Origin: Escherichia coli
Lineage (GTDB): Bacteria; Pseudomonadota; Gammaproteobacteria; Enterobacterales; Enterobacteriaceae
Strand: one strand, 5' to 3'
NCBI RefSeq assembly: GCF_003334385.1
Contig: NZ_QOWN01000156.1
DNA length: 639 nucleotides
Every line of letters starts with the position of its first letter. The first letter of the stretch is position 1. Positions 165-238 of the stretch are shown in pieces. Made by a program: the position numbers and the translations under genes. A model generated the notes under the pieces. The model did no database searches, had not been told where the DNA came from, and saw nothing but the letters and a program-made list of their open reading frames with translations.

Positions 165-187
165 GTTTTTTATGCCCCATGAAAAAC
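165..187. repeat. AT-rich near-perfect inverted repeat (10-nt arms, CCC centre)
   Basis: Plus strand 165..174 gttttttatg and 178..187 catgaaaaac are reverse complements except for one T/G position. It lies between the terminator stem and the downstream gene's Shine-Dalgarno, and its right arm is the terminator T-tract. Confidence 0.4.
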
Positions 188-214: not shown

Positions 215-238
215 CATACTTCATGTCACCTTCAGCAA

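Follow-up and report, generated by a model that had tools for sequence, protein, structure and literature searches.

The stretch of DNA considered here (which we call the window, 639 nucleotides from Escherichia coli) belongs to the eib locus carried by lambdoid prophages of E. coli, with 97.8% identity to P-EibC and P-EibD and 95.2% to P-EibA among the ECOR-9 prophages, and it is matched at 100% identity by the chromosome of E. coli SCU-104. In that chromosome it sits in accessory DNA at one end of a lambdoid prophage, in the gene order tail protein J, tail fibre, DUF4376 protein, YadA-like protein, hypothetical protein and S6 family peptidase. Judging from the open reading frames and their translations, all the genes of the window are on the minus strand. 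Positions 239-639 hold the 3' end of an eib-type gene (a YadA-like trimeric autotransporter and immunoglobulin-binding protein), whose coding sequence runs on past 639, whose translation ends ...WNVGVNFEF and whose TAA stop codon is at 241-239; its SCU-104 counterpart, 100% identical, is labelled 'YadA C-terminal domain-containing protein', and the gene is 97.8% identical to eibC and eibD and 95.2% to eibA of the ECOR-9 prophages. A spacer of 88 nt separates this stop codon from the start of ORF-156, of which the window holds the first 50 codons (1-150, with the ATG at 150-148). ORF-156 is annotated as a coding sequence in SCU-104 and as orf-156A/C/D in the ECOR-9 prophage records, and the full gene (positions 11680-12150, minus strand, of locus L001) encodes 156 amino acids and lies between the eib adhesin gene and an eaa-type S6 autotransporter protease gene. 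A Shine–Dalgarno-like AGGAAGG, read from the sequence at 158-164, precedes the ATG by 7 nt, and other lineages carry a purine-rich motif of the GGAG/GGGG type at an equal distance from the ORF-156 start.

Prophages that carry the eib and ORF-156 cassette are integrated at differing chromosomal sites (beside yciE and a truncated ompW, beside btsS, and beside yodB/zinT, as seen in the flanks of L001, L004, L006 and L007), and the gene that follows ORF-156 varies among these flanks, being an S6 peptidase gene, a DinI-like gene or a YkgJ-family gene. Where a genome contains the window sequence, it matches at a median of 3 places. Two other features of the window caught our attention and can be dealt with briefly. 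Positions 141-149 and 226-234, on either side of the intergenic region, hold identical direct copies of a 9-nt sequence, TGAAGGTGA when read along the coding strand, one just past the eib stop codon and the other overlapping the ORF-156 start codon; we considered this repeat as a recombination scar and rejected it as chance, since about 0.8 exact 9-mers are to be expected in a stretch of 639 nt and since in other lineages the copies no longer agree. There is also an ORF of 110 amino acids with an ATG start at 179-511 on the plus strand, antisense to the eib 3' end, rich in Cys and His and with its start codon within the palindrome discussed below; no matching record annotates it, and it is most likely spurious. 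A full-text literature search found no paper containing the names 'ORF-156' or 'orf156', and the later papers on eib expression that we consulted held no mention of terminators or promoters under the terms that we searched.

Read along the coding strand, the spacer begins with TAA, 13 nt, CATGAAG (225-219), TAT and G (215), continues with the stem ACGGCAGGC (214-206), an 11-nt loop and GTCTGCCGT (194-186), then TTTTT (186-182), CATG (181-178), GGG and CATAAAAAAC (174-165), and closes with AGGAAGG (164-158), TGCTGCG and the ATG (150-148). It contains the hairpin at 186-214 on the minus strand, found by both the terminator scan and folding, whose GC-rich 9-bp stem folds at -19.3 kcal/mol and starts at 214, 25 nt past the eib stop codon on the coding strand. 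A GC-rich stem-loop, a U-rich tract directly 3' of it (the TTTTT at 186-182) and a position just after a stop codon are what an intrinsic terminator consists of, and all three are found here, so that we infer from the sequence that the hairpin and its U-tract terminate eib transcripts. Indeed, GenBank already annotates the equivalent stem as a stem_loop in AF151091 (5121-5149), AF151674 and AF151675, downstream of eibA, eibC and eibD; the AF151091 feature spans ACGGCAGGC...GCCTGCCGT and covers the terminator stem only. The minimum free energy and centroid folds both add a lower-stem extension, in which CATGAAG at 219-225 (minus strand) is the 5' arm and pairs with TTTCATG at 184-178, and this lifts the terminator from -19.3 to -27.0 kcal/mol. 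We weighed a bidirectional terminator as well and discarded it, since on the plus strand GTCATACTTCATG, and not a T-run, comes after the hairpin.

It is immediately downstream of this stem that the palindrome lies. The repeat finder reports arms at 165-174 (GTTTTTTATG) and 178-187 (CATGAAAAAC), each of 10 nt, complementary at 9/10 positions and separated by a 3-nt spacer, just as the sequence-only reading had described it, with 10-nt arms and a single mispaired position. That reading was equally right about where the arms fall. The T-rich arm, GTTTTTCATG at 178-187 on the minus strand, consists of the terminator U-tract (186-182) plus CATG according to the repeat finder and the terminator scan, so that it does double as the T-tract, the scan finding a stem at 205-189 and then CGTTTTTCAT; the A-rich arm, CATAAAAAAC at 165-174 on the minus strand, abuts the AGGAAGG at 164-158 as described and lies within the poorly conserved ORF-156 leader. 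The view that no convincing sigma-70 promoter is present also agrees with a consensus scan, which found 0 sigma-70-like sites on both strands of the window, a scan that weak or non-sigma-70 promoters could escape. A candidate -10 picked out by eye, CATAAA at 174-169, was dropped, since the -35 at 17-nt spacing, CTGGTC, matches at only 2/6 positions.

How surprising is such a palindrome? The answer depends on what is shuffled. If 'equal or better' is taken to mean 10-nt arms with at most 1 mismatch and a loop of 0-8 nt, shuffling the whole window with its dinucleotides preserved yields one in 13% of cases, and shuffling just the 88-nt spacer yields one in 1.4%; with the terminator held fixed and only the leader shuffled, 10-nt arms arise in 0.75% of cases and 8-nt arms in 6%. 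Among 57.9 kb of real DNA taken from related loci we counted 35 sites of equal grade, a density of 6 per 10 kb, equivalent to about 0.39 in a stretch of 639 nt. For a genome scan, the palindrome is not above chance. Across the surrounding 24.6 kb, which takes in the sequence ahead of eib and ahead of the S6 peptidase gene, neither the palindrome nor a relaxed half-site pattern turned up anywhere but at the site itself.

The comparison of homologous spacers is what tells the two arms apart. Our set comprised 42 loci encoding an ORF-156 homologue (6 diverged E. coli chromosomal loci, the exact-match locus and 35 viral contigs), which reduce to 19 distinct upstream sequences and, between eib and ORF-156, 12 distinct spacers. 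All 12 spacers preserve the terminator core, with 99% of alignment cells paired and changes of the GC/GU kind only, and each eib-linked locus has a run of 5-8 T after the stem; the lower-stem helix is 79.8% paired on the alignment of spacers. The full 10-nt palindrome, by comparison, occurs in window-type spacers only. It drops to 8-nt arms in the combinations T5/A6, T8/A5 and T5/A5, as in the P-EibA-type spacers (T-run 8, A-run 5) and in L009 (T-run 5, A-run 5); in the type represented by L006, L007, L025 and L026 what is left is TCATG-TGAG-CATGA, 5 nt perfect or 6/7 when extended; in L021 and L020 it is gone (3 nt); and L005 has an unlike 7-nt match in another register. The A-rich arm is absent from L021, L005 and L020, all of which keep the Shine–Dalgarno motif, the start codon and the terminator. 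Between representatives of the lineages, pairwise identity averages 95% in the stem, 87% in the upstream 3'-UTR, 60% in the loop and 62% in the leader that contains the A-rich arm, and from the closeness of these last two values we conclude that the sequence around the A-rich arm is under no more constraint than the hairpin loop. Comparing the arms across related loci, the check that the sequence-only reading had proposed, thus goes against a functional palindrome: the A-rich arm is unconserved beyond the closest relatives and compensatory change is absent. The two lineages that keep a repeat have their mismatches at different sites, both uncompensated (CATG/CATA in the window type, a C within the T-run in the L006 type). 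One count points the other way, in that the palindrome columns are 74.8% paired in column-wise pair counts on the spacer alignment, vs 50-59% for slid controls, a figure that we discount because 6/12 rows are near-identical window-type sequences, because the columns are rich in T and A, and because indels make the alignment unreliable there; column pair counting was replaced by an alignment-free search for the best repeat and by folding of each variant.

We also observed that the homopolymer lengths (182-186 and 165-171 in the window, and the matching positions of L002, L004, L005, L006, L007, L009 and L021) drift independently among loci that are otherwise near-identical, with T-runs of T5, T6, T7 and T8 and leader A-runs of A6, A5, A3 and A1. 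The differences in T-run length might alter read-through into ORF-156 and eaa. The T-run has, besides, a better-conserved partner than the downstream A-run, namely the CATGAAG at 225-219.

Could the palindrome act as RNA? Two such roles can be imagined, one before termination is decided and one after it, and folding speaks to both. In the first, pairing between the U-tract and the A-tract would compete with the terminator and thereby tune eib termination in an attenuation-like switch. The two structures do share bases 187-178 and are partly mutually exclusive, and in this the arrangement resembles attenuators such as the trp leader or the expression platforms of riboswitches, where two mutually exclusive pairings likewise involve part of a terminator. 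The antiterminators known from attenuators fold ahead of the terminator and take up the 5' half of its stem, so that in a real switch the partner lies upstream, whereas here it lies downstream of the U-tract, at 174-165, and is far weaker and unconserved. The A-rich arm is 8-17 nt downstream of the last U and is therefore still unsynthesised when termination is decided at 186-182, which bars it from acting as an antiterminator. The energies are no kinder: the AT hairpin alone folds at -3.2 kcal/mol (z = -0.94, with 37/200 shuffles folding as well, no better than shuffled sequence), it touches only 187-178 and displaces only the lower extension, not the GC core, and the GC core plus AT hairpin reaches -19.2 kcal/mol against -27.0 for the extended terminator, a cost of 7.8 kcal/mol. 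A permissive Rfam search gave no credible match in the region; a hit to CC0196 (E = 3.1, 13 bits vs a gathering score of 35) was set aside as noise, being on the other strand within the eib coding sequence. With the A-rich arm lost in three lineages as well, we regard a terminator-competing switch, one of the roles that had been suggested for this palindrome, as extremely unlikely, and the co-folding put forward as its check leaves the AT hairpin negligible (-3.2 vs -19.3 to -27.0 kcal/mol).

The second role would come into play once the transcript has been extended, the weak hairpin just 5' of the Shine–Dalgarno motif tuning the initiation of ORF-156 translation or the stability of the mRNA 5' end. 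It is a tidy idea, since the hairpin adjoins an uncovered Shine–Dalgarno motif and could keep it exposed, and a shortened repeat does persist in the L006 type, but the predicted pairing of the U-tract runs mostly in the opposite direction. When a read-through RNA is folded as an ensemble, the 12 nt beyond the stem have a mean P of 0.69 for pairing with upstream sequence and a P of 0.15 for pairing with downstream sequence; across the window-type and L021 variants the U-tract has P of 0.69-0.82 upstream vs 0.00-0.15 downstream, and in the L006/L007 type 0.47-0.49 vs 0.00-0.01. L005 and L020 alone pair it downstream, and their leaders have unrelated sequences. Add to this that the hairpin is marginal at -3.2 kcal/mol and that it is lost in three lineages which keep the Shine–Dalgarno motif and the start codon, and a post-termination role becomes very unlikely.

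The most appealing alternative concerns DNA, and it draws its appeal from the protein encoded next door. ORF-156 has no Pfam match and no NCBIfam match, and it falls in a PHROG family of unknown function; its 44 detectable homologues are without functional annotation, and each one that is given a name by its source is an E. coli hypothetical protein. Sequence profiles do not place it among response regulators, neither a GerE/LuxR helix-turn-helix nor a Response_reg profile being matched: residues 99-150 have a faint similarity to GerE/LuxR helix-turn-helix domains, 1/20 family members reaches E = 0.1 with the GerE profile on its own scan, and a PDB profile search gives E = 1. The structural model is another matter. 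Built from a 20-sequence alignment, it has a pLDDT of 85.7 and a pTM of 0.80 and consists of two domains, an alpha/beta receiver and a four-helix helix-turn-helix domain, and Foldseek matches it over its full length to StyR, RcsB, FixJ, EvgA, VraR and DosR with probabilities of 0.99-1.0, the TM-scores being low (0.3-0.5), as expected if the domain orientations differ. The faint GerE/LuxR similarity of residues 99-150 is in agreement with this fold. ORF-156, which bears a hypothetical label in every record seen, models confidently as a NarL/FixJ-like two-domain regulator, so far unannotated, and it may be an uncharacterised prophage-borne regulator. In the receiver-like domain, mapped by secondary structure only, the residues after beta1 are T7-R8-N9 and include no acidic pair, and the D52 that ends beta3 is invariant; in the helix-turn-helix domain the predicted recognition helix, KTVNTFLY, is invariant in all lineages. 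Many Stx-converting phages (933W, Min27 and many Stx2a phages; records H36-H69) match ORF-156 over residues 25-156 only and in two pieces, which lie under two separate annotated 'hypothetical protein' genes, and this suggests that their copy is disrupted or split. In L031 and L036 the ORF-156 homologue (at 2501) has no eib gene upstream, and the upstream region there is unrelated and has no terminator; it has a palindrome of its own, AATCATAAATTCTGATT at about 2435-2455, roughly 50 nt upstream, with 8-nt arms, 1 mismatch and a 1-nt spacer.

Is the palindrome, then, an operator? The proposal would be that the 10-3-10 repeat is bound by a dimeric helix-turn-helix regulator, the prime candidate being ORF-156 itself, and that it controls either ORF-156 or read-through from eib. 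NarL/FixJ-type regulators bind inverted repeats as dimers, ORF-156 is modelled as just such a protein, the inner 7 nt of the two arms are about 10 bp apart from centre to centre, and the site lies directly upstream of the ORF-156 gene, so that, as with the known operators of the LuxR/NarL family (the NarL 7-2-7 site, the RcsB box and the EvgA box), an inverted repeat of about 20 bp stands beside a gene for a predicted LuxR/GerE-type helix-turn-helix. Unlike those operators, the palindrome is not conserved along with the helix, has no promoter, occurs as a single copy and is made up mostly of drifting homopolymer runs. KTVNTFLY is invariant, yet the half-sites are not kept with their cognate recognition helix: L021, L005 and L020, as well as L031 and L036, which have no eib, lack the palindrome ahead of ORF-156, and no 6-mer of the leader is common to all lineages. 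The independent lengths of the T-run and A-run would in addition shift the register of the outer half-sites, the sigma-70 consensus scan offers no adjoining promoter for a regulator to act on, and the 24.6-kb neighbourhood provides no second site. A dimeric-regulator operator for the downstream gene, which had headed the list of suggested roles, therefore finds no support in the comparative data, with the palindrome lost where the helix is kept, and we consider it quite improbable. A narrower version would confine the recruitment to the window-type (eibC/eibD-like) lineage, where the 23-bp palindrome might have become an ORF-156 binding site; this too we hold to be very improbable. If it were true, ORF-156 bound just after the eib terminator would be a roadblock or an autoregulator that sets read-through to ORF-156 itself and to the S6 protease gene.

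We are left with the plainest of the readings, and it is very probably the right one: the palindrome is a coincidental by-product of a known and conserved terminator, whose U-tract happens to lie beside an A-rich, drifting leader. The eib gene ends at 241-239 and is followed by its intrinsic terminator (hairpin 214-186, U-tract 186-182 and the extension pairing 225-219 with 184-178), directly after which comes the short A-rich leader of ORF-156, with CATAAAAAAC, AGGAAGG, 7 nt and the ATG. The appearance of an inverted repeat arises because a T-run stands beside an A-run and each adjoins a CAT(G/A) motif. ORF-156 would be expressed by partial read-through or from an unrecognised promoter, and the A-rich leader would merely keep the ribosome-binding region unstructured. 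This is in keeping with the annotated eib stem_loop terminators in AF151091, AF151674 and AF151675, which likewise have a GC-rich 9-bp stem and a T-run, kept in all eib-linked loci; what the palindrome adds to them is another partner for the U-tract, the A-rich leader, which lies outside the terminator and is unconserved. There are points on the other side, and they should be given their due: an equal palindrome is rare within shuffles of the spacer (1.4%, or 0.75% when only the leader is shuffled), the L006-type lineage retains a shorter repeat, and a predicted DNA-binding protein is encoded directly downstream. Even so, of the roles that the sequence-only reading had listed, it is the last, simple coincidence in an AT-rich spacer, that the unconserved A-rich arm, the negligible AT hairpin and the chance-level frequency bear out.

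For the biology of the eib prophages, the palindrome would consequently be of little significance. Were it to prove functional, it would be a first handle on the transcriptional coupling of eib, ORF-156 and eaa. As matters stand, ORF-156 is the only part of the locus that may merit attention.
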